DNA of 61,270 nucleotides, taken from Craspedostauros australis (lineage: Eukaryota). Under the pieces are notes generated by a model that saw only the letters and a program-made list of their open reading frames with translations, had not been told where the DNA came from and made no database searches. A program made the translations under genes and the position numbers. Where the stretch lies: the NCBI GenBank assembly GCA_030167865.1, contig JALAGF010004571.1, forward strand, positions 1 through 61,270, in the 5' to 3' direction. The first letter of the stretch is position 1. Each line of letters starts with the position of its first letter. Below are positions 5,000 to 61,270 of the stretch, in pieces.

Positions 5000-5978
5000 A
5001 CGGCATGAGCGCCAGGAAGACATTTTCGTACCGCAGCCACCACGTACCCCTACTACTCATGGACAAGCTCGCACGGGTGGACTTACCCTTGGGCCGAAGT
5101 CGCTGCAACGTCCATGCTTTCTCCGGGGAGATATCGATAAGTTTGGTCTGTCCCGTTCTCCCATAGTTGCACGGAGATGTTCCCTACGACTACGCCTTGA
5201 GCAGAGTAGCTGTACGGTACGACCTACCCAACTCTCCGCTTTGGACTTTCGTGGCTTGTTTGGTCCGCCACGACACACAACAATGGCACTTCGTGAGGAC
5301 GTTTATGGCAAGACACGGTGAGGCGCCGATCGGTAAAGTCCCTGTGGGCATGCACGAGCTGTGGTGTGCCATGCCAACGACATTGCGTCCTTGATAAGTG
5401 TGGCACTATCATGACTGCACAAGTAAGAAAGCACCTTGATTTTTACTCTTACCCCATGCTATGCACACATGCCTCGCAGGTCTTGAAGTTTCGAATCGCG
5501 CCCTCGTGTGTGCAACAAGTCGCGCCTTGGGACATCAACGCGCTCGGTAGACGAGAGGGAAGAGGAATTCGCCAAGAGAGCATGTGAATCACATTTCTGA
5601 GGATTTTGGTTAAATCATGCACTTTGTTGATGGACAAAGAACGCCATCGGTGTCGCAAGCACTCCAGTAATGGATTCCACCAGGGAGAGGGAAACAGTTA
5701 CATCCAAGTCATGGTAAGGGAAGGCCGTCAGGAACATGGCATGTCAGATCGTGCATCTGAGGCATTGGCATTTGTATTGGTGGCAGGGCAGCTCGCGGCG
5801 GTGGTGGCGCCGCCTCGGACCACAGCAATGGGAAATGCCACGGCGCACCAGAAACTTTGGACCTTGCTACCTGGTCCCATCTTGTTATTATGTGCACGAT
5901 CTTTCGCAATAGCTCGTGCTCTTAACTTGTGTTCGTGCAAATGCGGTATTGTTTTTGTACGCATCGTGAAGATATGAT

Positions 5979-6451
5979 GTGCCACCCCACCCGCGAACAA
6001 GATCCGCAAACCCTACTACTATACCTGTGCAACCTGGGTCATCTTGCGTCGTCGCGATGGGACGGAGAGAGAACTTGGCGCGACCATTGGACACTCCAAG
6101 AACTAGAGGACTTTCATGTCATTTGTGCAACATATCTGGCATCTGCACTAATGTCAGGCACACATTTATTACGAGCGACACTTCATGAAGTGAGCATTCA
6201 TGATGGAACTTTCCCTGGTCGTCACAGCGATCGTGGAATCCAGGAAGCCAACAAGAGGAGGCAAATGATCTGCAGCTTTCATGACTTCGACAGATCCCCG
6301 AAGAGATGCAGTTCAAACGCGAGTTCGTGATTATTGCCTGGCACAAGACCAACGAATCTTGCTTGATTGACCAATGCATATGTATTGAATGTTTTACTGG
6401 TGGAGACTTGATGTTCGGCTGAAGTACAGATTCCATGAGCATGGAGGACGG
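5979..6451 (+). pseudogene. Possible decayed gene fragment
   Basis: One frame is interrupted only by TGA codons (6186, 6201, 6282, 6420) and ends at a GTGAGT donor-like site. The region is locally CpG-poor. Confidence 0.3.
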
Positions 6452-45350: not shown

Positions 45351-48300
45351 CTATGCAACAGCCCGCGGTTCGATACCCATGAGCGGACCGAACTTGTTGA
45401 GAAGAACCTTCTGGACGAGACCTCGAATATCCTGGCTCTGGACTCGAATAAGGCTACAGATCAACGGGAAGAAGTCCGATTTCAGACGCTCCATCTGGCC
45501 CTGCTCGAGTCCTTGCATCGCCTTCAGGATGCCCACGACAACGCCCGCGAACGAAGTGCAATAGATCGCCACCTTCCCGGTGCCTTCAATGGCGTGCCTC
45601 CATTCGTTGGGATCGACGGAATGACCTTCCTTCGATTCCGAGTCCACGAACTTCGTAAGGATGTCATGAATGATGTCCAGCAGGTTGTGTGCTGCGAACT
45701 TCTCTCTCTCCCATTCCACAACTGGGGACTGATCGGTCGTTTCGGCTGTGCACCTGTACAGATCTGTGAGGACATTGATGATCGAATTCGCAGCACCTGC
45801 AGACTGTGTCAGGAAGAACATGGCGCTGCCCTGCGTCGTTGATCGCTGGGCCAAATTCACCAGGTCCTCCTCTCCGACTTCTTCCATTCCAACACCCCAC
45901 GCGCTCAGCATGTCCTCCTTGAAGGCATGGTTCAGATCTCCGTCTTCGACTGCGCTCTCTGCCATCGCCCTTGATTTGTCCAGCAGTTCGACGACCTTCG
46001 ATATCTGCGCCTCTTGCATCAGTTTGAGCAACGGGACATCCAATGACGACAACGACTGCTGAAGGCAGTGGGCGGAAATACTCCTCAGCTTGAGCAACGG
46101 CACCAGATCGAGCCAATCCACATCGTCTTCTGATTTTTGCTCTGCGCGTGGAGCATATCACATAGGTGCAGAGTAAAGCAAGACAAATAACGGGGGCAAG
46201 TTGAGATTGCGGTGATGTTGACAAGACCAATGCAGGTGCATGAGTAATAGCGTGATGCATCACTGGTAGTAACATACTCCAAGTAGCGTGACGCATCACA
46301 GAATAGTGGTGGATTGCGCAAACGTTTCACTCCGTTTTGCACTGAAATCGGCACGGCTCTTTTCATCCGAGACACGATGAACAGGAGAGCGAAGACAATG
46401 GCCAAAAACCCAACCCAACCCAACCCAACCTATCTGCACGTACCTTGCAGCGGACTTTCAGAAGAATCACCATTCGCCTCGCCTCCGTTGTTTTCATTCA
46501 TGTACGGTTTGAGCTTCAGCCGAAGCAACTTCGATTGGATCTCTTCCTGCTCTCGGAGTGTGGACTCCAGGCAAGACAGGAATAGCACGAAAATATCATT
46601 GGCCCATTCAATGCAAATGTCGTCATCATCCATAGCACCGACCCTTGATTGCAGTCGGTTGAACAACCTGCGAAGTTCCATGCAGGATGTTCGAACCAGC
46701 GCCTCGCACGTGGACCACACCATAATATCAGCATCACCGTTGCCACCATTTTGAGCGGCACCCGTGGATTGCTTCTTTCCGTTGCACCATGACGAGATCA
46801 TGGCCGATATCATCGGCCAGAATAGCTGCTTCCCCTCCTTGCCATGCTGAAATGCAACCTCTGTGATGACATCAGTGAGCAGACCAAGCGCTATCGGAGC
46901 CGTTGTCGCAATCCAGCTGCTGGGGAAGGGCTGATCTATGATCTTGGCTTCGACTGATTTGTTCAAAAATTTGTACGCCTTGCTGACATCGCCGTCACCG
47001 CCGTGCCTCATGTCCGTGAAGCTCGCCTCAACGATAAGTTCCACGGGCCCGAATTTCCGCCTCGGCGATCTCTCGGACTGCCGTGCCACCATTTCGAATT
47101 CGTGCAATCCTTCATCGTTGATGGACGGTGGCAGCGGCGGTGCTTCCACCAAGAAATCGAGGCTGGAGACAGCCGGCGATTCGGAGATGATGGTCACGAC
47201 ACGAGAGGAATCAGCTTCCACAGCTGCCTGGATTGCTGGCACGATCGTCTGATCGAAGATGGCATGAACTTGTTGGATGGAGAATAGGTGCTTGTACCGC
47301 AGCACGATGCTTCGAACCAACAGCACGCTGCCTCGATGCAGGAGGCAGCCAACACCGCCCTCCACGCTCTTTTCTGTAGATTGGATGCCGCTCGCGAGAC
47401 TCTCGAAGAGCGGCCTCCACAGCACCAGTTCCAATGCCTCCTTCTCCGAAAGTCCTTCGTAGGTGTATCCGAATGCTGCGGGGTCAGTGGTTTGGGCGCC
47501 TGAAACTGGATACTCCACTCGTCGTTCTGCCAGAAGGTCGGCGAAGATGGCGACATGACACAGTGCTCTCATTGAGAGGCTTGCTGGGCTGGGCACGCCG
47601 CTACTTTGCTTGATGAACGCAAGCGACGTGCTGTACATGAAGATGAAGTCCTCTGCGTTGGCATTGCGGTTTCTTTGTTCGAATGCGGACAGTTCTTCCG
47701 TGGCGGGGCTTGTGTCATCATCATCCTTCTTCGTGCCCTCCGCTTTCTGTGATGATGTTTCAGATTCCGTGTCTGCAGCATCATGAAGCCGAAACAGCAG
47801 CTCCAGATGCTCGTCCAGCAACCGCTGCATGATGTTCAGACCCATCATGTTTATTCTGTCGCTTGGGTCGTTGGCTGCGGAGGTGATGATGCTGAACACG
47901 ATCTTCCACCCGCTCTTGAGGTTGTGAGATCTGGTCTGCACGATGTTGTCGATGCACTGCAGCACCAGCTCACGGATATCAGCGCGCGTGCCTGGATTCT
48001 CAATCACCTGCAGGAAGGGCATCAGGAACATCCGCTGGAAGTTGAAGTCGGACAGCTCCGGTTTCTCCAGGAACTTGAAACTCAGCTGCTTCAGCGAGTC
48101 CATCGCGAAGACACTGACCATCCCGTTCTTGTGACAGCCGATCGTGGCGAAGAAGTCGGACACCATCTGCCAGATCTGCTTCCACACCAACCGAGGTCGC
48201 GTGTGCATGTTGTAATCGGCGACTTCTACGAGGCGTTGCAGCGAGAAAATGCTGCTGCCTTGATCGCCATGAGCGGAGCCTGTTGTCTGGCTGATGCTGC

Positions 48301-51300
48301 CGCTACCATTGGCGGCGCCGGTGGTACCGCCGCCATTCGCGTTTGCCGCAGCGGAGGCATTGGTGTTTCCGGAGCCTTCAATCTCGGACATGGAAACTGC
48401 AACCAGCTGCCGAATAAAGCTGGCCAAACTCCTCGAACTCAGCTTGACGGTGGAGGAGAAGACCTTGTCGATCAGGACCTCGTTGACAGACTCCAAGATG
48501 GCCCGGCCGTTGTTCTCTTCTGTTTCCTTCGACAGCTCCGCCTTTGTCTGTTGTCGGAAAAGGGTGCCGTCAGCAAGCCGTTCAACGGGACGCGACTTCG
48601 TCTTTCTCGGCGTCGCATTCACGGTAGCACCATCGTCCTGCAGGAACGAGTCATCGGCGTCCAACCCAGATGCAGACATGCGCATCCTCGCGAGCTTGGA
48701 GATGCATTCCAGCACCGATCCCCAGCTTTCCTCCAAGTACTCACCATCCTGAACAGCGATGCTGAGCAATGTCTTGATTGCCGCGATATTCTTGTGCTTC
48801 ATCTCCTTGATGGATCCAAGGAATGTGAGCTTTGCCAATGAATTCACAAACGTGTCACGTGCCAGAGACATGCCGCTGTGCGCGGCGATTCGGATGGCAT
48901 ACACGAACCCGTTCAAGCACACGGCCGTGCCTCGCTCGTCGTTGGAGAATTCGAGAACCTGAGACAGAATGCCGATCATGGGTCCCCATGTCACATCGAA
49001 CATGGGCTTGACGACGTCGGCCGGCGACACGTTGTCCGTGATGGCACCGTTGCTGCCTCCAGCCGTCGTGGCCGTTGCGGTAGCTGCGGCGTTTCCACCG
49101 TTGCCGCTGGATCCCGCCCTGCCTCTGGCTGGTCGCCGCCGGATGAGCTGCTCCGTCGCTGCGAGCATTTCGTCTCTCTCCTTCTGGAACTTTCCTTTCT
49201 TCTTTTCTTCCGTGCTGGCGCCGAACAGAACATCCGGGCTGAAGAAGATGCCATCCAGCTGCGACTTGGCCACCTTCTCTCGCGCCATGTCATCCTCCTT
49301 GAGACTGAACGGACGATCGCGGATACGCTCGAAGATCCCGATGAGAAAGTCCCTGTCGAGGTCGGCACCATTCTCACCGATGCCTCTGTTGTTGGCGATG
49401 AAGGAGTCGATGGTCATGCGGCGTTCCGGCTTGATGGAAGGGTTGTGCAGATCGGTATTCAGCATGATGACCGAAAAGGCCAGGATGAATGCGGTGTCGG
49501 CGGAAGCAAAGACGTCCGGATTTTGTCGCGTGTACCGTTCCGCGAACTTTTCCATGATACGGTCGATCTTCTGCGCTTCGCCTGGCAAGCGGAAGCCTGA
49601 GAGGAAGAGGCGGATGGCCTCATCGAATTCCAACCCTGCCAGGTCCATCGCGTCGGTGTAGTAGTACAGTACGCGCACGTAGAATCCGCGGCCGCCCTTC
49701 TCAGCATCGATGGGTTCCTTTGGCACGCCGTCATCGATCTTTGGCTTGATGAATGCGGCATCCGGCTCCTTCCCGAGCACCTCTCCAGTCTGGGTCTTGT
49801 CGATCTTGTCCTTGTTGACCAGAAGAAATCTGGCCAGGCTCCTCGCATCCAGCTCCACGAATCCGTTGTCGATGAAGAAGTTGAGGCCACCCTTGATGGA
49901 CAGCGTGAACTTGACAGCGCCCAGCTCAAAGTTCTGCTCCTGGTTGCGCTTGCGATCGAAGGCGTCGACTATGCGTCCCGCCAGATCGGACGATGATGCA
50001 TCCGCGTTCGACAGGGCGGTGTGCCGCGCGAGATCATCGGTGGTGAGACCACCGCTGGTGCCCGTCGCTGACGCTTCAGTGGTGGCAGGTTGTTGCATGT
50101 CACCGTTGGCGTTGTCACCATCGAACGGATGGATCGAATTCTTGGACATATCCAGCGTGCCGCCGACGGACTCCAACTTGAGCAACGAACGAATCTTGGA
50201 TCCTGCGATGTCAATTTCCGAATGCGTGGCATCGACGTTGGTGAATTCATCATGCAACAACGACACGGGTTGCGTGGACAGTCCCAACGCTTTGAGGAAT
50301 GCTTTGAGGATGGTGACGAGGACCTCGACGCTGGAAAGGCTGACGTCAAAATCGGAGAGGGCGTCCTTGGTGGCGGTGGCAGCGGCGGCCTCCACTGGCA
50401 TCGCCGACTTGCCACCGAGCTTGGTGAGGCGGAAGACGATGTCCTTGTACAGGTTCATGGCCTCGAAGTCGCAGTCGTAGTTGAGGAAGATCTGCGTGAG
50501 CATGACTGGGTCGTTGCAGAGCGATCGCAACGATTCGAGGACGAGGGCCTTCTGCTGGAGGGAGGAGTTTGGCGAATCGAGGACCCGCAGGAAGATGTTG
50601 CTCATGAAGACTTCGATCTCCTTCTTGAGATGCGATTTGAATTTGTAGACCATGACTAGGAATATCCGTTGCGACATGAATGCGACCTGGGTGTGGTTGG
50701 ACATGCAGTTTTTGAGCATGGTGACGCAGAGCTGCGTTTGCACGAGATGGATGAAGCGTTCTCCCTGGCAGATGGCATTGCCGGCGCACTCCATGACCTG
50801 CTGCAGGAGCTCCAAGCTGAGGACCTTGTTGCGCAGAGCGACGGGATCCGTGGTGGTTGACATGGTGAAGAAGTTGACAGCGGGGAAGTTTGCTGCAAAG
50901 TTGGCCAAGGTGCTGGGCGTCTCATCTTCATCCCCGAGCCTCTTGGATGCCAACCTGCAGAGGCTGCGGAAGAGGACGAAGGCGTCCGTGTGATACTGCG
51001 ACTTTTGATCCGGATGCGCCTTCTCCATGGCCTCCATCTTTCCAAACACGGTGCGCAGGATGGTCATGAGCGCTGACTTTGCGGCATGCTGACAATCCTT
51101 CGTCTTTCCGACTAGGTAGACGTGGAAGGTCCCCCTCAAGGCAAATAGCATGCTGGCCTCGTGCACGCCGCAGTTTGGCGATGTGACGATGGCCTTGTTG
51201 CAGTTGACGACCTTCTCCAGGACGGAATCGTTGATGGACTCGCTGCACTTGCAGATCCCTTCTAGGGTGCGATGCAGGAGCGATTGTGGTGGCGGGACGA

Positions 51301-52598
51301 CCTGCGCTTCCTGCTGCTGCGCTTGTGTCTGTCGCATGTACGCCGCTCCCGAACCAGAGGTGTCATGAATACCTCCTGCTCTGCCGGAGACGTAGTGCTT
51401 ATTGACCAGGTCCGTGGTCGTGTCCAGCACCCATTGGCACGCCTTGGTAGTTTTGGAGTCATGGTTCATGACCAAGCAGAATGCCTCCAGCAAGGCTCGA
51501 ATGGCTGCGTGCATCGGTTGTCTCGTTTTGGGATCATCTTCCACGATCGCGGATGCATCTATGTTGGGCGTGTTTGCGTTTGCGTTTGTGTTTGCCTTTG
51601 TGTTTGTTGTTGTGGATGGCCCCACTGTGGATGGCCCCACTGTGGATGGCCCCACTGTGGATGGCCCCACTGTGGATGCTGCCGCTGCTGTTGCTGCCGC
51701 TGCTGTTGCTGACGATTCTGTTTGATCATTAGGCGTGGCACCTGTCGGCGAGTTTGGTTGAATATCTGTGGTTGCCAGCGTTGCCTGCGAGACGTTGATG
51801 ACATCATCCAAGTCATCGGAAGTGGAGTCTGGGTTGGTTGTGAAATCCCCCGCGGTCGATTCGAGATCGTCATCCACTGTGGCAGTTGTGACCGTCATTG
51901 AATCTGTTTCGTTGCCGTTCTCGGTGGAGTGATCATTGTGCATATTGTTGGCGTTGGTAGCGTCGCCATTGTGTTTTGCGGCCTCCGCCGCCGCTGCTTT
52001 CTCCACCTTCATCCATTCTGGTTCTTCGATGGTGCCGACGGGCGGCCATCGCTCCCTCTCGAAGTTCTTGAGGAGCAGAATTGCTTCCTGCAGCTTGGCT
52101 TGGACGGCCTGTCATGCGGTTGGAGTTGATGAGGATGTGAGTGTTATGAAGGCAGTGTTATGAATGCCAGTGTTATGAATGCCAGTGTTATGAAAGCAAT
52201 GTGATGAATGGACAGATGGGATTGAGCATGAATATGAGCATGAATATGAATATGAGCATGAATGTGTTGTGTGAGTTAAGGTAGTTCAGGTTGCAATCTT
52301 AGTGCGCTTGATAGTCCAATGCTCAGCCATTCACTTCTATTGTCTGCTGTTGTATTGAACGTTGGTGTGATAGTAGGCGCGATAGTTGATGCCATAGCAA
52401 CACCCAAACAGCCTCGTGACTCACCCGAAACCTCCTCCCTCTGAGCTCGCGCTGGATCTTGCTGGCCATCGGCAGCAGCTGCTCATGAACATACTGATAA
52501 TGCGGGCTTGCCGCGGTCTCATCATCCACTCCCTGCGTTCGATCGTTGGACAAGGCGGCTGAGAACCCAGCCAGCGCTCCGGACACCAGCGACGACAT
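45351..52598 (-). CDS. Large Sec7-domain ARF guanine-nucleotide exchange factor (BIG/Sec7 type); exons 52598-52425, 52108-46444, 46141-45351
   Basis: DCB/HUS region (FLNYDCD), Sec7 motif FRLPGEAQKIDRIMEKFA and IMLNTDLHNP, and HDS domains (FAMDSLKQLSFKFLEK.EL..FNFQ..FL.PF; NLKSGWK). Splice phases are consistent. Confidence 0.95.
51611..51678. repeat. Coding 15-nt tandem repeat x4.5 (encodes STVGP)
   Basis: (tgtggatggccccac)x4 + tgtggatg, perfect copies. Confidence 0.95.
52141..52265. repeat. Intronic tandem repeats (GTGTTATGAATGCCA)n and (ATGAAT/ATGAGC)n
   Basis: Read directly in intron 1 of the Sec7 gene. Confidence 0.8.
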
Positions 52599-53625: not shown

Positions 53626-56606
53626 TCATATGTCCGCAGATGGCTGGCCAACCTCGTATCCTTCCTGCTGCCCAGCAGGCCTCGCCGTGTCGCCGTCTGC
53701 TGTCGCCGTTCCTGTTGCGGACGCAGCCACGCTGTGCTGGGTCAGGAGGTCCTGGGCAGTCTGGTACAGGATGGCGTTTGGCGTTTCCACGGGAGGCGGG
53801 CCCAGGATCGCGACCGTGGCTCCGTGGTGCGCGGCTGGGCCCATCACGTGGATCAGCTGGGCTGGGGCAGCTTGGACGTTCGTTCCGATGGCGGTCGCTG
53901 TTGCGATGGGAGCTGCGGCCACCAGCGTCGTCGCCAGTGCATACGTGCCGTGGGCCATGGCAGCGGCAGCAGCACTTGCGGGGGATGCCATCATGCCATC
54001 CGTCGGTGCATTGCCATGTGCGTTGGCGTTCAGACCCGTGTTCATGTTCATGTTCGTATTCGTATTCGTGGTGTTGTTGCCAACGTCAGCGTGGTTTTGT
54101 ATCGTCTGTAGCTGTGACTGTGATGTTGGTGCGGCAGCTGTTGCTACTGTTGATGTTGATGATGATTCGCCAGCACTCTTGGATCCTTTCGCTTCCCCCT
54201 TGCCAGCATCCGAGCGTTTCTTGCGCTCCAGATCGCCACGTCGTTCGCACACGTTGTGGGCGAGAGTGTTGTGGAATCCAATCTCACGACCCCAAGCGAA
54301 TGCGAGGTCGCTGAAGTTTGCGTACGGGGTGCCGCCGCTCAGGAGCAGGATCTCCACCATCGCCTGTTGCATTGTGATTCGTTCCGTTGCGATACATTGC
54401 GTTTATTGGTTGTAGCATCGCACGAGGGAAGATGCGGCATCGGGGACAATGTGAGAATTGAGGAGGCATACGACTACTTGTCGGAACATCCGGGACAACA
54501 CTTGAAGTGCGTTGGCATGACACATCGCACAATCATCAAAACATGCACGAACAAGGTGCAACAATAGATTAAAGACCATAGAGTGCTCCTCATGTGGACA
54601 ACGTACCAACTGCCTTTCCCATGACTCCAGCTGCGTTCCCAAATTCTCGACGGGGTACAACCCGCGCGCACGGCGTTCGCTGTTGCGATGCCATCCCGGC
54701 TCCCGATCGATGCCATCGCGCAGGAATGCCACCAACGGCATGATAGGCACGTCGTCGGGTGCGCGTGGCGGGTCAAGCGGGTTGTCCTTTGCGGAAATGA
54801 GCACGGGCTTGCTGGATTGCAAGCTGGACGGCTTGTAAGCGATCGAAGATGGCAAGATGCTGTCGTACACGGAATCACCCTCCGGAGATGGTGGCATGGC
54901 TGTGCCGCGCCGTCCCTTGATCTTTCCCGGTGCCATGGATGGGTAGTTCGCGTCTCGCCAATGCCGCTTGCACATGCCCTGATGGGTGCCTTGCGCTTGC
55001 TTCTCGCAGCCTGCGACCTGTGAGGAGATGGTGCGTGCATTGGAATTAGTGGGATGGAAGAGCAGGCAACCGCTCAACGCGAAATATGTGAGTTTGCTTT
55101 CTTGTTTGCTTACTTGTTTCGACATGAGCAAGATGGCATCATGTACGTATTCATTCGTTGCGACAACACCACAGTCATGGTCGTGCGCATGGCTGCATCA
55201 GAGCATAGCAGCAGACATGTGTTTGTCCATCGACTTTGCTTGGAAGGGCTTTGACAACAGGAGGTCGGGCGTTATTCCGCGGCATCCAGTGGCATTCCAA
55301 GCAACTGGAATGATCTCGCAAACAGTGATGATGATGATGATGATGATGGTGGTGGTGGCGGCGATCGAGCATAGCGCAACACGATAGCACGATGGCATGA
55401 TAGCACAATAGGACAAAGCATGCAGCAAAACGCACAGTGTTCGAATGAAAACACCATTGCATGGCAACGTACCTTGCAACGCTTGGCCTTGGCCCCGTGC
55501 CGTTGGCACATGCCTTGCGATTTGATGACTTTCGTGCATCCAGGATGACGGCACAGGCGTCTCCTCTTGGACGGCGGCTCCTGCTGCGAAGCCATGGCCG
55601 GATCGAAGCGAACTTCATGATCCATTCCAGCGTTGGGAATGGCTTCGGCGTCCACGTTGTTCTGAACCATCTGCATGGCAAATCCTTTCGCTGCTGCGTC
55701 GATGTCTTCATCGCGCTCTGCTCTCTTTCCTCCAGTCTGTATCTCCGCGGGTTCGTTCTCCTGCAACGTGCCGGTACCTACTGGAGCGCACATGAGCACC
55801 CCTGTGCCGTCTTCTGCCTGTACTGGCGGTGGCGCAACGGGATGTGCAGTCATGATATGTGCATCATGAAGTTGCTGCTGTTGGTGTTGCTCCTGCTGCT
55901 GGTGTTGCTCCTGCTGTTGTTGCTGTTGGTGTTGCTGTTGTTGTTGTTGTAGGTCTTGGTGATGCGGCATCGACTCCTGTTGTTGATGATGCTGTTGCTG
56001 TTGCTCGTGTTGTGGATGATGTTGCACCTGCTGTTGGTGATGCTGTTGCACTTCCATGCCCATCGTTTGCACCTGAGGCTGCCCCTGAGGTTGCATCTGC
56101 ATGTGGATATGCTGTTGCTGATGTTCCTGTGCGTGCAGCTGCAGGGGTGTCTGATGATGCACCGGCATCTGCTGATCCTGGTGAACGTGGCGGCCATCAT
56201 GCTGTTCTTGTTGAAAGTGAGGCTGAGCAAGGGATGGGTCCTGTGCGTGCACCTGTACTTGTGCATGTTGCTGAAGTTGTGCATGTTGCTGAAGTTGTGC
56301 TTGCGGCTGCATATGTGTTTGTGCGTGTGCTTGTGCCTGAGCTTGAATCGCTGCTTCTTCGGGGGTCTCACCTGGCACGTGAGGTACTCCGGCTGGTGCA
56401 TGAACTGTTGAATGCATGGTGTTCTCTCCCATTCCCACGGAATCAACAGCCACAGCCATAGCTATGGCTGGAGAGACATCGCTGTTGCCATCGCCGTTGG
56501 TGACATGATTGCCATTGTGTGTGTTGCCATCGTGCACAGCCACCGCTGCATGCGGCACTGCTGGCTCCACCTGATCCATTTGACCCACGTGCTCTTCTGT
56601 TGACAT
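53626..56606 (-). CDS. Q/H-rich protein with two WRKY19-like C-x4-C...C-x2-H zinc-finger repeats; exons 56606-55473, 55017-54607, 54363-53626
   Basis: Spliced product reads CRHPGCTKVIKSQGMCQRHGAKAKRCK|VAGCEKQAQGTHQGMCKRHW, with an NLS-like KRRR and a polyQ/H N-terminus. Introns are phase-0 GT-AG. Confidence 0.82.
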
Positions 56607-57656
56607 GCTTGAACAATGAAGGCTGATGTGCTGATGGGCAGCTGGAAGATTGTTCGAAGAAAGTTGGTAAGGGCTGGAAGACAGTCGATGACAATTGGAG
56701 CAACTGACAATGAAGTTGAAAACGAGGCTTTCAACTGGGTCTGATGATCTCCACGCCGACCTCCTCTCTTTGCGTTTCCTCAGTTGACTCTTGTGTCGAT
56801 TTGCTGAGAGGTCTCGATTGCTGGAGCTGCTGCTTCAGGTACGTTCCAGGCAGTGGTGCGGACGGCCGGACACTGCTGTCGCTGTACTCGCGATGCCGAA
56901 GAATACTTGATGTGGATACTTGTTGAGTCCACTTGTGTCAGTGCGAGTAGATCGTACCTTGTTGGTAGAGAGTACTTCTATTGGTATGGCAGGGTGCTCG
57001 TCAGTGCTGTGTGTGCTGAAAGCACGAGTAGTTGCAGAGTAGCTGCTCTGTGCTCGCGCAAAGTGGAAAGAGTGGGAGAAAGAAGGAACGAAGATTGAGC
57101 AGAGATGTGTGGAAGCGAAGTTGTGGAGACGATCCGAGGATGGTATCTTTGGTGTCTCATCAAATAGCTCAAACTGCGAGTTCGAGCTCCTCTCTTGCCT
57201 TCGCAGGGCCTTCTTGGTTTGTCTTGTTGTTGTTGTTGCTGTTGTGGGAGCCCACTCGCTCTTCGCGAACTTCTTGTGTGCTGATCGTGTTTGGCGCTGT
57301 CGTCCTCGTTGTTGTTGTTTCTTGTGCTTGTTGTGAATCGTGAAGAATTCTGCCACGATCTACGACTACAAGTTCTCGTGTTTGTTGTGGCGTGTGGTTT
57401 GTCAATTCTCGATACATCAACAGAAGTATTGTAAGAAACCAAAGTGTACATCGACGATGGTACTAATTTCAATCAAGTCTAGAAACTCTGATCTCCTCTC
57501 CAGAGCTCTCGCTTGTCTGGATGACGCGGCAATGTGGTTACTGCAGGATGGAAGCAGACGCATGGACCAATGGTGCTTGCAAACTTGCATGCAGCGTCGA
57601 ATGTTGGCAGTGTGTGTAGCATTCGATGCGATTGTATCAGAGGAGGGAAGAGAGCA

Positions 57657-57845
57657 TATTGATTCCAGTCCCGCACGTGACCCGACTGACCGGCGTACGC
57701 AAAGTGCGCACCTCGCGCCCACTTTCCTCCTAGAGCAGATCAAGACACTAGCAGGAGCCAAGACCGCAACTCCTCAGCTCAGCAATGTAATATCTCATAA
57801 TATTAGCGAACAACATTGATTCACACACTACTCGTCTTATTGACA
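57657..57845 (+). repeat. Putative 5' LTR (3' end ...ATTGACA at 57845; 5' end uncertain: TATTGAT 57657 or TGTCAAT 57400)
   Basis: Terminal CA lies 68 nt before the gag ATG. The partner LTR is outside the window, so the boundaries are inferred. Confidence 0.5.
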
Positions 57846-57859
57846 GTTGTTCGCTAATA
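57801..57859 (+). promoter_or_regulatory. Perfect 14-bp inverted repeat pairing the PBS position with an LTR-internal sequence (candidate self-primer)
   Basis: TATTAGCGAACAAC (57801-57814) is the exact reverse complement of GTTGTTCGCTAATA (57846-57859). Confidence 0.75.
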
Positions 57860-57913
57860 GGCAACGTTTGAAAATCTCGGTCACCAAGACCAGCATCACC
57901 AAAAATCATCACC

Positions 57914-59077
57914 ATGGCCAACAGCCACAAGAAGATCCTCGCCACCTTTCCACAGGCAATCGTCGAACCCATCGTCGGGGTACCCACATACGAGTCCATC
58001 GCAGAACTCAATGTAGTCCTCAACGCCAATGCGGCCTCNGTNCACTGCCCNCTCGGAAACGGNCAGCTTGGATACCTGGTCCTCACCGTCTCCCGAGNGG
58101 TGTACCAAGAACACTCGGCGACAGCATTCGTCGTGCCGGTCAATCCAGGACCGCACCCGAACATCCCGAACGCAGCCACTGCAGCCCAGATCAGCGCCGC
58201 CACCAGCATCCACAAGGAACAAGAGCGCCTATGGAGAGAGTACCGCGCGGTCGACAATGCCCTCAAGCAGCAGCTTCTTGGCGCCATTGAAGACCAGTAC
58301 GTGCGAACTCTCCGCCACAACATCGTAGGGTACGCCAACGTCACGACACTCGAGCTGCTGACCCACCTGTACTCCACGTATGGCAAGATCACACCGCAAG
58401 ACCTCGACGAAAACGACAAGGCCATGAAGACCCCGTACAATCCGACGGCGCTGTTCGAAGTGCTCGTCGCCCAAATCGAGTCTGCGCGCGATCTTGCGGC
58501 AGCCGCCAAAGCGCCGTACGCAGATCACCAGCTCGTCACCACGGCATACAACCTGGTGTTCCGAACACAAGCGTTCCCCGAAGCATGCCGTTCTTTCCGC
58601 GCTCTCAGTGCCGCCGACAAGACATGGGCTCGCTTCAAGAAGGACTTCGCTGCAGCTCACCAAGACCTGCGCGAAACGCAAGCCACGACACAAGACGCCA
58701 ACTTCCAAGGAGCCAACGCAGCAATCACCTCCGCGGAGACTACAGACGCACTCGCCAACCTCGCATCCGCCACAGCCGCGGATCGCAGCACAGTAGCGCA
58801 GCTCACCGAGAGCAACGCCAACCTCGTCAAGCAATTGACAGAGATCACGGCGATGGTGTCCCAACTGCGAGCCAACGCAGCCACGAGCAGCGGCACCGGA
58901 AGCAAGAAGGGAGGGCGCAAGCACAAGCACAGCTCCTACTGCTGGACGCACGGATACAAGGTGGGCATCACGCACACCAGCGCGACGTGCATGAACCCAG
59001 CGCCAGGACACCAGAAGGACGCCACTCGAAGCAACACCATGGGAGGATCCACCGACGGCGCCAAGTCGAACGCATGA
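57914..59077 (+). CDS. gag: Gag protein of the copia element
   Basis: 387-aa ORF with a coiled coil and a C-terminal knuckle YCWTHGYKVGITHTSATC. It lies directly upstream of protease/integrase. Confidence 0.88.
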   Translation: MANSHKKILATFPQAIVEPIVGVPTYESIAELNVVLNANAAXXHCXLGNXQLGYLVLTVSRXVYQEHSATAFVVPVNPGPHPNIPNAATAAQISAATSIHKEQERLWREYRAVDNALKQQLLGAIEDQYVRTLRHNIVGYANVTTLELLTHLYSTYGKITPQDLDENDKAMKTPYNPTALFEVLVAQIESARDLAAAAKAPYADHQLVTTAYNLVFRTQAFPEACRSFRALSAADKTWARFKKDFAAAHQDLRETQATTQDANFQGANAAITSAETTDALANLASATAADRSTVAQLTESNANLVKQLTEITAMVSQLRANAATSSGTGSKKGGRKHKHSSYCWTHGYKVGITHTSATCMNPAPGHQKDATRSNTMGGSTDGAKSNA

Positions 59078-59146: not shown

Positions 59147-61270
59147 CTCGCCATAGTTGACTCTGGTTGCACTAGTCATTTCCTGCGACCTGAAGATCCA
59201 TGCATTGGCCAAACGCCCGACGATAACCCGTTGGCGGTGTCGCTGCCTGACGGATCCAGCATCCAATCTTCCCACCGAGCCACAGTCAGCATTGCCAACG
59301 TGCCACAGCACGCTTGCACCGCACGAATTTTTCCGCAGCTTTCCAGCGCGGCGCTTGTGTCGGTGGGGCAACTGTGTGACCACGGCATGACAGTTGACTT
59401 CGACCAAGAATCCGTGAGAATTCGAAAAAACGGAAACACGATTCACACCGGTTGTCGGCATCAAGTTGACGGCATGTACCGCATCGACATCCAACCGCCG
59501 AAGCCCACATCGCCAAAAATGGCCAATCACGTCCATCACACGTCAACCAAGACGGAACTGGCCAAATATTACCACCAGTGCTGTTTCAGCCCCGCGGTAT
59601 CCACGTTCACGGCAGCCATCAAGAAAGGATTCTTTTCGTCTTGGCCAGGCCTGACCGAACAAATGGTGCGAAAATTCCTTCCACCTTCCACCGCTACCGC
59701 CGCTGGGCACCTCCGACAACAGTACCAGAACACGCAGTCCACGCGCAGTCACTGCAACCACGTCACCCAGTCCACCAAGAATCCCACGGAACAACGCGAA
59801 ATCTTCATGGATGTTTATCGGCCAACAGGCAAAATCTTCACCGATCAAACAGGCCGATTCCCAGTGACGTCAAGCCGTGGATACCAGTACATCATGGTGT
59901 TGTACGACCATGACTCCAACGCGATTCTTTCACGCCCACTGCGCAGTCGGCACGCAACGGAACTCACGCGAGCGTGTGACGAACTTTTGACGGTTCTCCT
60001 TCGAAGCGGAATGACACCGCGGTTCCACAGGCTCGACAACGAGGCGCCGAAAGAACTCAAGCACCTCATCGAGTCAAAAGGTATCCAGTACCAGCTTGTA
60101 CCACCAGGCATTCATCGGCGCAACGCTGCAGAGAGAGCCATCTCCACTTGGAAAGACCACTTCATCGCAGGACTGGCCACAGCCGACGAAGCGTTTCTGC
60201 TTCATCTGTGGTGTCAACTCCTCCCCCAATGCGACATCACGCTCAACCTGATGCGACCGTCGCGAGTCAACCCACACATCTCGGCACATCATGCCCTCCA
60301 CGGCAACTTCGACTTCAACGCAACGCCAATGGCACCACCAGGCACCAAGGCCGTCATTCATGACAAACCCAGCAAGCGAGCCACGTGGGCACCGCACGGA
60401 TCCGCCGGATGGTACATAGCACCAGCACTCGAGCACTACCAGTGCTACAAGGTATATTGCAACAAAACGAGGAAGATCCGAATCACCGACACCATCGAAC
60501 TGATGCCAAGCAAGTGCGCCATGCCCACACCAACCAACGCAGAGATGGCCATCAAAGCGGCAGGCGACCTCGCCACCGCACTCACCAAGCCATGCGCACC
60601 ACTCCGGTCCATTGGCGACGAGCAACTCGGAGCACTCCAGCAGCTCAGCGACATCTTCCAGCAGGCGCTCCCCGCGACGCCCACAGCGCCACTTCCGAGG
60701 GTGCACACCGAGCCACCTCCGAGGGTGCTCACCACGGCCAGCAGTGGCACCAACAACAAACGCGTCACCTTCGCGACGCCGGCGCGCACACCTCCGAGGG
60801 TGCCCCAAACCACACCGCAAGTCACAGACGACGAAGCCGACTCCGAACCAGAATCGGACGACGACGACGACGACGACGACAGCGCCAACACGGGAGCACC
60901 TCCCACAGGCCATTCCGCAACAACGCCACGCACACGACTGCGCACCGGCACCATCCAGCGCAAGCAATGGGCACGCGGAGCCACCACCGCAAACGCAGTC
61001 ATCGACGAACGCACGGGAACGGCATACGAATACCGGCACCTCATCGCTGGCAAGGTTCATGGCCACACCCCGCAACAATGGTACACATCCTTCGCAAACG
61101 AGATCGGGCGTCTCGCACAAGGCGTCGGAACCCGCATCCCAGCATCGGCGGCAACCAACACCATCTTCTTCGTCCCAAGATCAGCAGTACCACGAGATCG
61201 CACCGTCACATACGGCCGCATCGTCTGCGCCGTACGACCACAAAAAGCGGAAACACATCGCACGCGCCTC
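59078..61270 (+). CDS. pol: Pol polyprotein (protease, integrase, start of reverse transcriptase), partial; absent from the ORF track because it has no stop in the window
   Basis: Manually translated and open to the window end. Protease: IVDSGCTSHF (D at 59159) and LVSVGQLCD. Integrase: FTDQTGRFPVTSSRGYQY...RLDNE...HRRNAAERAI. RT start: WYTSFANEIGRLAQG...TIFFV...VTYGRIVC.VRPQK. Confidence 0.92.

Follow-up and report, generated by a model that had tools for sequence, protein, structure and literature searches.

A Copia-Type Element Beside a Sec7/BIG Gene

The DNA analyzed here, called the window in the following, is one stretch of 61,270 bases. Near its right end the plus strand carries an LTR retrotransposon, of which the 5′ LTR, gag and the first part of pol lie inside the window. 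Upstream of it, the minus strand holds a Sec7/BIG ArfGEF encoded by a single open reading frame of 1860 amino acids (46430–52012). As the best named matches of this neighboring gene all come from diatoms, the top one with 80% identity, the host is a diatom, which had previously been assumed for this DNA. A second minus-strand open reading frame (55272–56606) encodes 444 amino acids and gave only a sub-threshold match to a zinc finger; the insertion site of the element is about 1 kb away from the ATG with which this frame, lying on the opposite strand, begins at its 5′ end. A tRNA scan detected no tRNA genes in the window.

The gag open reading frame (57914–59077, plus strand) encodes 387 amino acids and ends with a TGA at 59075–59077; tblastn detected gag relatives in many of the fetched loci. 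Pol follows on the same strand and in the same frame as gag, and its translation runs from 59078 to the window end at 61270, where it is cut. It contains the protease motif D-S-G (59159–59167) and the integrase residues D, D, and E at 59843, 60035, and 60131, which correspond to the invariant columns D249, D313, and E345 of the pol profile. The first reverse transcriptase motifs appear from about 61235, the core of this domain lying beyond the window end. Five single N bases are located in gag (58039, 58042, 58051, 58063, and 58098) and one at 1580; because of the five within 58039–58098, the intactness of gag in this copy can be judged only partly.

As a Pfam search with gag and the pol fragment of the window returned only sub-threshold matches, the family was assigned by means of relatives. 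When longer proteins were searched for, 258 relatives were obtained of about 1270–1430 amino acids, the named ones from Fragilaria crotonensis and Fistulifera solaris. In full-length relatives an integrase SH3-like domain (residues ∼380–530) is followed by RVT_2 (PF07727, residues ∼730–990). The domain order PR-IN-RT of the window is the one that defines Ty1/copia elements (Pseudoviridae), with RVT_2 seen in the full-length relatives. Judged from its sequence, the element is a Ty1/copia-type LTR retrotransposon with the arrangement gag, in-frame TGA, PR-IN-RT. A gag search of viral contigs gave no match.

All 40 relatives in which both the C-terminus of gag and the N-terminus of pol were available (loci L001–L077) have an in-frame stop between the two genes and no frameshift, the stop being TGA in 34 and TAG in 6. 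This arrangement points to stop-codon readthrough as the way in which pol of this clade would be made. Stop-codon readthrough for pol is unusual for Ty1/copia elements. With regard to the surroundings of the stop, many relatives have a C after it, followed a few bases later by a tract rich in G.

Limits of the 5′ LTR

The 5′ LTR comprises 189 bp (57657–57845, plus strand), starting with TATTGATTCC and ending with CTTATTGACA. Since the window ends before the 3′ LTR of this copy, both limits were set by homology, including the start, for which the earlier note gives no position; self-BLAST of 57000–57913 against the window revealed no second LTR copy. In 24 relatives the LTR starts with TGTT or TATT directly 3′ of a conserved, polypurine tract-like GAGGGTG. 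Measured from this start to the predicted primer-binding site (PBS, see below), the LTRs of these relatives are 139–269 bp long, with a median of 189 bp, and the TATTGATTCCAGTCCCGC found at 57657 of the window resembles their starts. In L023, the closest relative, the LTR ends like that of the window, in ...CTTATTGACA, and a complementary stretch of its own follows. The LTR end at 57845 given in the earlier note thus agrees, on the basis of homology, with the terminus of L023 and with the boundaries of the LTR pairs of three further relatives (L005, L014, and L077, see below).

A longer LTR starting with TGTCAAT at 57400, which forms a 7-bp terminal inverted repeat with ...ATTGACA, was also considered. 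It was rejected because the LTRs of 139–269 bp in the relatives follow GAGGGTG with TGTT or TATT, a start that is matched at 57657.

The sequence that abuts the LTR start (TGTT or TATT) in the 24 loci, e.g., in L023, L024, and L075, is a conserved purine-rich tract with the consensus (G/A)(C/T)G(A/G)GGGTG. It is likely the polypurine tract and plus-strand primer of these elements, and with its help the start of the LTR can be located in contigs with a single LTR.

A Fold-Back Repeat at the LTR End

A repeat search revealed a perfect 14-nt reverse complement between a first arm inside the LTR (arm 1, TATTAGCGAACAAC, 57801–57814) and a second arm (arm 2, 57846–57859) that immediately adjoins the LTR end. 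The two arms are separated by a loop of 31 nt (57815–57845). The helix stops at both ends, where A57800 lies opposite G57860 and A57815 opposite A57845. Arm 2 directly follows ...ATTGACA, the last base of which is 57845, and TGG is absent after this position. Upstream of arm 1, a TCAT is located at 57795–57798. The perfect complement, the TCAT near arm 1 and the lack of a TGG had all been described in the earlier note, and each of them is present in the window as described.

Perfect inverted repeats of at least 11 nt with a loop of 15–100 nt occur just twice in the 61,270 bases, and the 14-nt repeat is the longest. When the RNA from 57797 to 57913 was folded, the helix of arm 1 and arm 2 was dominant; the minimum free energy was −23.9 kcal/mol (z = −3.34), a value that was equaled by 1 of 200 shuffled sequences.

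The Hairpin in Related Elements

Related elements were collected with a pol profile (alignment A1), which retrieved 80 metagenome loci with pol identities of 33–48%. The N-terminus of gag was found in 45 of these loci, giving 46 elements together with the window. Three of them (L012, L017, and L034) were dropped as too little upstream sequence was available, so that 43 elements were examined. The 35 loci with no match to the gag N-terminus were examined by the covariance model only (see below).

A hairpin of the same architecture was present in all 43 examined elements, the window included, and each of them has a counterpart of arm 1. The pairing is therefore conserved in related elements, a point on which the earlier note had made its interpretation depend. 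The duplex is perfect over 10–14 nt in 33 of the 43 elements, over 9 nt in 7 and over 8 nt in 1, while the remaining two contain one mismatch (L023 with 9 of 10 pairs, L025 with 11 of 12). Taken together, the duplex is at most 9 nt long or broken by a mismatch in 10 of 43 elements. The loops measure 21–55 nt, apart from a single one of 92 nt, with a mode of 31. In a few elements the hairpin had to be selected by its link to the motif upstream of arm 1 (described below). The top repeat is another one in L026, L057, and L080, whose motif-linked hairpins are 9, 9, and 10 nt long, respectively. A mismatch-tolerant motif scan chose other sites in L003, L018, L019, L026, and L080, and in L021 it took a CAT anchor further upstream for the same hairpin; the motif-linked hairpin was used in all of these cases.

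The frequency of such repeats was also determined without any alignment. The best perfect repeat with a loop of 15–100 nt reached at least 10 nt in 33 of 41 upstream regions, L026, L057, and L080 being counted here with their different top repeats, compared to 1 of 37 coding windows taken from the same loci and 24 of 820 mononucleotide shuffles of the 41 regions (∼430 nt each). Two of the shuffles reached 12 nt and none reached 13 nt.

The position of the hairpin relative to the LTR end could be fixed independently in three elements in which both LTRs were found. The LTR pair of L005 is 201 bp long and 100% identical, with a 5-bp target duplication (CTCCT); that of L014 is 119 bp long and likewise 100% identical, with the target duplication TAAAC (5 bp); and that of L077 is 144 bp long with 95.8% identity. 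Arm 2 starts at the first post-LTR base in all three, and arm 1 is located 25–46 nt before the LTR end. The hairpin sequences of these elements differ from one another and from that of the window. In the LTR pair of L077, the older element (191–334 and 5494–5637), a substitution is present in the 3′ copy of arm 1, and the 5′ copy has kept its match to the PBS.

The sequence of the PBS is highly diverse. The 43 elements have 34 distinct PBS 10-mers, which differ on average at 5.7 of 10 positions in pairwise comparison, and not one of the 43 PBS starts with TGG. This diversity argues against a tRNA primer shared by the elements. Within the loop, a T is found at position 5 in 31 and at position 6 in 34 of the 43 elements, often as part of ACC(G/T)TT(T/A)A; the corresponding bases of the window (57819–57820) are A and T. 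The conserved T residues could relate to a poly(A) site or to strand transfer.

Covariation of the Two Arms

When the window was aligned along with relatives by MAFFT (A2), its arm came to lie out of register. The covariance model (R1) was therefore built from seven relatives with the window left out (alignment A3). It yielded 32 matches at E ≤ 1 in 81 sources, all of them on the plus strand (alignment A4). Beyond the loci with a gag match, the model added L079, a truncated match in L047 and a second site in L007. Run against the whole window with filters off and on both strands, R1 gave a sole match at 57790–57862, with 18.6 bits and a weak E-value of 0.11.

In alignment A4, 91.9% of the cells are paired, and 12 of the 13 pairs have changed on both sides (91 cells). 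The covariation score was 0.676 compared to 0.147 in shuffled alignments, and none of 500 shuffles reached the observed value. When the partner was slid by 1–3 columns, the score dropped to 0.05–0.11. Covarying pairs between LTR and PBS, which had been proposed as a check of the pairing, are thus present throughout the clade. As A4 was fitted to the structure it leans toward pairing, a bias of which the alignment-free repeat counts given above are free.

An Initiator-Like Motif at a Fixed Distance From the Arm

The TCAT upstream of arm 1 is part of an initiator-like motif, TCATA (57795–57799, plus strand), in which A57797 or T57798 is the presumed transcription start. At the corresponding place, 30 of the 42 distinct elements have TCA[ACT][AT], namely TCATA in 21 and TCATT in 9. 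The distance from the A of the motif to the 3′ end of arm 1 is narrowly distributed, with 16 nt in 19 and 17 nt in 21 of the 43 elements and 18 nt in the window. As the scan required a CAT within a 7-nt range, CAT is found in 43 of 43 by construction; neither the TCAHW count nor the narrow spacing follows from this requirement.

The motif TCAT(A/T) fits the Inr-like consensus TCAH+1W that has been proposed for diatoms (PMC4686930), and it also resembles the oomycete INR, YCAYTYY (PMC3599244). Across the 43 elements the perfect duplex always stays at least 3 nt away from the A of the motif, which is what an RNA starting at this base and a PBS copied anew from the primer would lead one to expect. 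As proxies of RNA ends, the ends of the 80 loci were searched for poly(A) tails or T-runs and the contigs for a start at the motif; neither was found.

Probable Priming by the Element's Own RNA

We consider it probable that the element primes reverse transcription with its own RNA in a Tf1-like manner, as had been proposed from the window alone. The interpretation is supported by the comparative evidence, namely the LTR end, the conservation and covariation of the pairing and the diversity of the PBS. Those refuting conditions of the earlier note that were examined all came out in its favor. The arms pair, arm 2 abuts the LTR exactly, the pairing covaries across the clade at a fixed spacing from the motif, and none of the PBS has the TGG of a tRNA-type site; from these observations, and by analogy with Tf1, we infer where transcription starts, where the RNA is cut and that it serves as primer.

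Transcription would begin at the TATA-less, initiator-like TCAT(A/T) inside the LTR, at about 57797/57798, and the first 15–18 nt of the RNA would fold back across the 31-nt loop. The whole predicted primer would extend from about 57797/57798 to C57814 on the plus strand. Its last 14 nt (arm 1, 57801–57814) would pair with the predicted PBS (arm 2, 57846–57859), the corresponding duplexes comprising 9–14 nt across the clade. The RNase H of the element would then cleave after C57814, and the freed 3′-OH would be extended from 57845 to 57815, resulting in a minus-strand strong-stop DNA of about 31 nt. The predicted template of this DNA is the loop (57815–57845, plus strand), consisting of the remaining R and U5. 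Plus-strand synthesis would copy the RNA primer back to DNA, so that the PBS would be rewritten from the LTR arm in every cycle. Such rewriting would explain why the two arms are matched perfectly though both of them drift.

The strongest argument for self-priming is a geometric one. The 3′ end of the primer defines the LTR boundary, and the pairing starts at this boundary in all three elements in which it was fixed independently. The main difficulty of the Tf1-like model is the very short R-U5. If the RNA starts at the motif, R and U5 together measure only about 49 nt in the window and 37–72 nt in most relatives, and little of R remains for the first strand transfer after primer removal.

Alternative Explanations

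As a first alternative, the hairpin could be an RNA or DNA structure conserved for another role such as packaging, dimerization, translation control or strand transfer, and the element would use another primer. Covariation proves that the pairing is selected, not that it primes, and a conserved hairpin of unknown role is known at the position of the PBS in fungal copia elements. According to PMC5445492, these GalEa elements ("branch 1") have no tRNA PBS, and their 5′ LTR is directly followed by a hairpin that is conserved and covaries. In this "conserved hairpin site" both arms lie behind the LTR. The first is a palindrome of 9 bp in which the last base of the LTR takes part, and a complement in U5 or the LTR was not found by the authors (PMC5445492). 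The diatom element shares with GalEa the copia type, the apparent lack of a tRNA-type PBS and a conserved, covarying hairpin at the LTR end. However, the GalEa hairpin is a local palindrome with no complement in the LTR, whereas one arm of the diatom hairpin lies inside the LTR beside the initiator-like motif. Moreover, arm 2 starts at the first post-LTR base in three of three elements, precisely the position that defines the 3′ end of the primer, and the elements offer no alternative candidate for a PBS, with TGG at the start in 0 of 43. We therefore regard a role of the hairpin other than priming as unlikely.

In a second alternative, priming would not be done by the 5′ end of the RNA; the primer would instead be the counterpart of this sequence at the 3′ LTR or on a second RNA. 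If the CAUAA-like motif acted as a poly(A) signal as well, with cleavage 16–17 nt further on, the resulting 3′ end could pair with the PBS and prime directly, in cis by circularization or in trans, with no need for a cut by RNase H. The 3′ end of arm 1 is indeed fixed at 16–17 nt from the motif in 40 of 43 elements, and 16–17 nt is a typical distance between a poly(A) signal and the cleavage site. The very short R-U5, awkward for the Tf1 model, also favors this explanation. Nevertheless, a primer of this kind would be blocked by a poly(A) tail, strand transfer starting from a 3′-end primer would have a topology with no known precedent, and the motif fits the diatom initiator consensus. Priming from the 3′ copy thus appears quite unlikely to us. 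A particular form of it, in which the CAUAA-like motif doubles as poly(A)/cleavage signal, R corresponds to the 16–17 nt primer and an un-adenylated 3′ end primes a circularized template, we hold to be decidedly unlikely; if true, it would be a mode of priming not described for any LTR element. More likely than this form is a milder version, in which a large and abundant marine copia clade would have independently swapped tRNA priming for Tf1-like self-priming and combined it with stop-codon readthrough for pol.

A third alternative is that a host tRNA, or half of one, anneals to the PBS, as is the case in copia, Ty5 and Osser, and that the complement in the LTR is incidental. The lack of a TGG is compatible with it inasmuch as primers made of tRNA halves need none (PMC6317226). 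Conserved tRNAs, however, cannot yield 34 different PBS 10-mers in 43 elements, each matched by the LTR arm of its own element, and priming by a host tRNA or tRNA half is consequently very improbable. Least credible of all is a chance match, for although 24 of 820 shuffles reach 10 nt, none reaches 13 nt, the repeat is the longest in the 61-kb window and 43 of 43 elements share its architecture. Given that the 34 PBS sequences differ and that each of them is individually compensated, the tRNA-half and the chance explanation both seem close to excluded.

Comparison With Known Retrotransposons

In Tf1 of Schizosaccharomyces pombe, self-priming has reportedly been shown experimentally, with the first 11 nt of the RNA serving as primer. 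It has been inferred for the Tf1/sushi and Tcn1 groups of the Ty3/gypsy chromoviruses. To our knowledge, Tf1 is the only element in which self-priming has been demonstrated, and in the gypsy-type relatives it is mostly inferred.

The predicted system of the diatom element resembles that of Tf1 and Tf2 in that a PBS directly adjoining the LTR can pair with the beginning, here predicted, of the RNA of the same element, which is located inside the LTR. As in Tf1, a tRNA-type PBS appears to be lacking and a fold-back hairpin would join primer and PBS. The two differ in domain order, which is PR-IN-RT (copia) in the diatom element and PR-RT-RH-IN in Tf1/sushi elements. Since the integrase precedes the reverse transcriptase and the reverse transcriptase of the relatives is RVT_2, the element is not a member of the Tf1/sushi group. 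They differ also in the primer itself. While Tf1 uses its first 11 nt, the predicted diatom primer comprises about 15–18 nt, with a duplex of 9–14 bp and at least 3 unpaired nt at its 5′ end. Compared to Tf1, the loop of 21–55 nt and the R-U5 of about 37–72 nt in the diatom clade, values derived from sequence data, are very short.

Among Ty1/copia elements, self-priming has been predicted for the plant TAR lineage, which includes Houba and Osr-1 (PMC6317226). The premise of the earlier note that copia elements normally use whole or half tRNAs as primers thus has a known exception in this lineage. The diatom element is similar to the TAR elements in being a Ty1/copia element with a self-primer, predicted from the sequence, in place of a tRNA. 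Unlike the diatom element, the TAR elements have land plants as hosts, and they belong to what is probably a different copia lineage.

With the CoDi elements, as they are presented in the main text of Maumus et al. 2009 (PMC2806351), the element shares the diatom host, the Ty1/copia order and the presence of one or no stop or frameshift between gag and pol. This main text does not describe the type of primer; "tRNA" and "self-prim" occur in it 0 times, and its sole "PBS" denotes a buffer (PMC2806351). A literature search, with most subscription journals and supplements outside its scope, returned no report of self-priming in diatom elements, and neither do PMC5445492 and PMC3601003 report it in the portions available.

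Implications

The elements described here form a large, apparently undescribed clade of diatom copia elements that probably prime themselves. It is a whole copia-type clade, represented by 42 distinct elements from many metagenome contigs and the diatom copy, with unusually clear covariation. If the interpretation is true, diatom copia elements would be independent of host tRNAs, and the tRNA-based detection of PBS in LTR annotation pipelines would miss such elements or set their boundaries wrongly. The concerted change of both arms would also be accounted for, since every cycle would renew the PBS from the LTR. Furthermore, the mode of priming would become a character with which the deep phylogeny of copia "branch 1" (CoDi, GalEa, and Ty) could be studied. 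Self-priming in diatoms would likewise bear on the idea that priming by hairpins came before priming by tRNAs (PMC3601003).

Arrangement of the Metagenome Contigs

Many of the metagenome contigs of about 5.3–5.6 kb are circular permutations with terminal overlaps and one LTR. Circularly permuted contigs were L024–L026, L031, L036, L038, L043, L053, L054, L058, L061, L065, L068, L072, and L080. One further contig (L074) contains a tandem repeat with a period of 5313, in which 3941 nt are repeated at 99.9% identity. The permuted and tandem contigs could result from LTRs collapsed during assembly, from tandem arrays or from circles with one LTR. The 7.1-kb contig of L007 contains hairpin matches at 955–1041 and 6188–6265, and its LTR-like stretches are weakly similar, with 68% identity; the two matches appear to represent two different elements of the clade located side by side.
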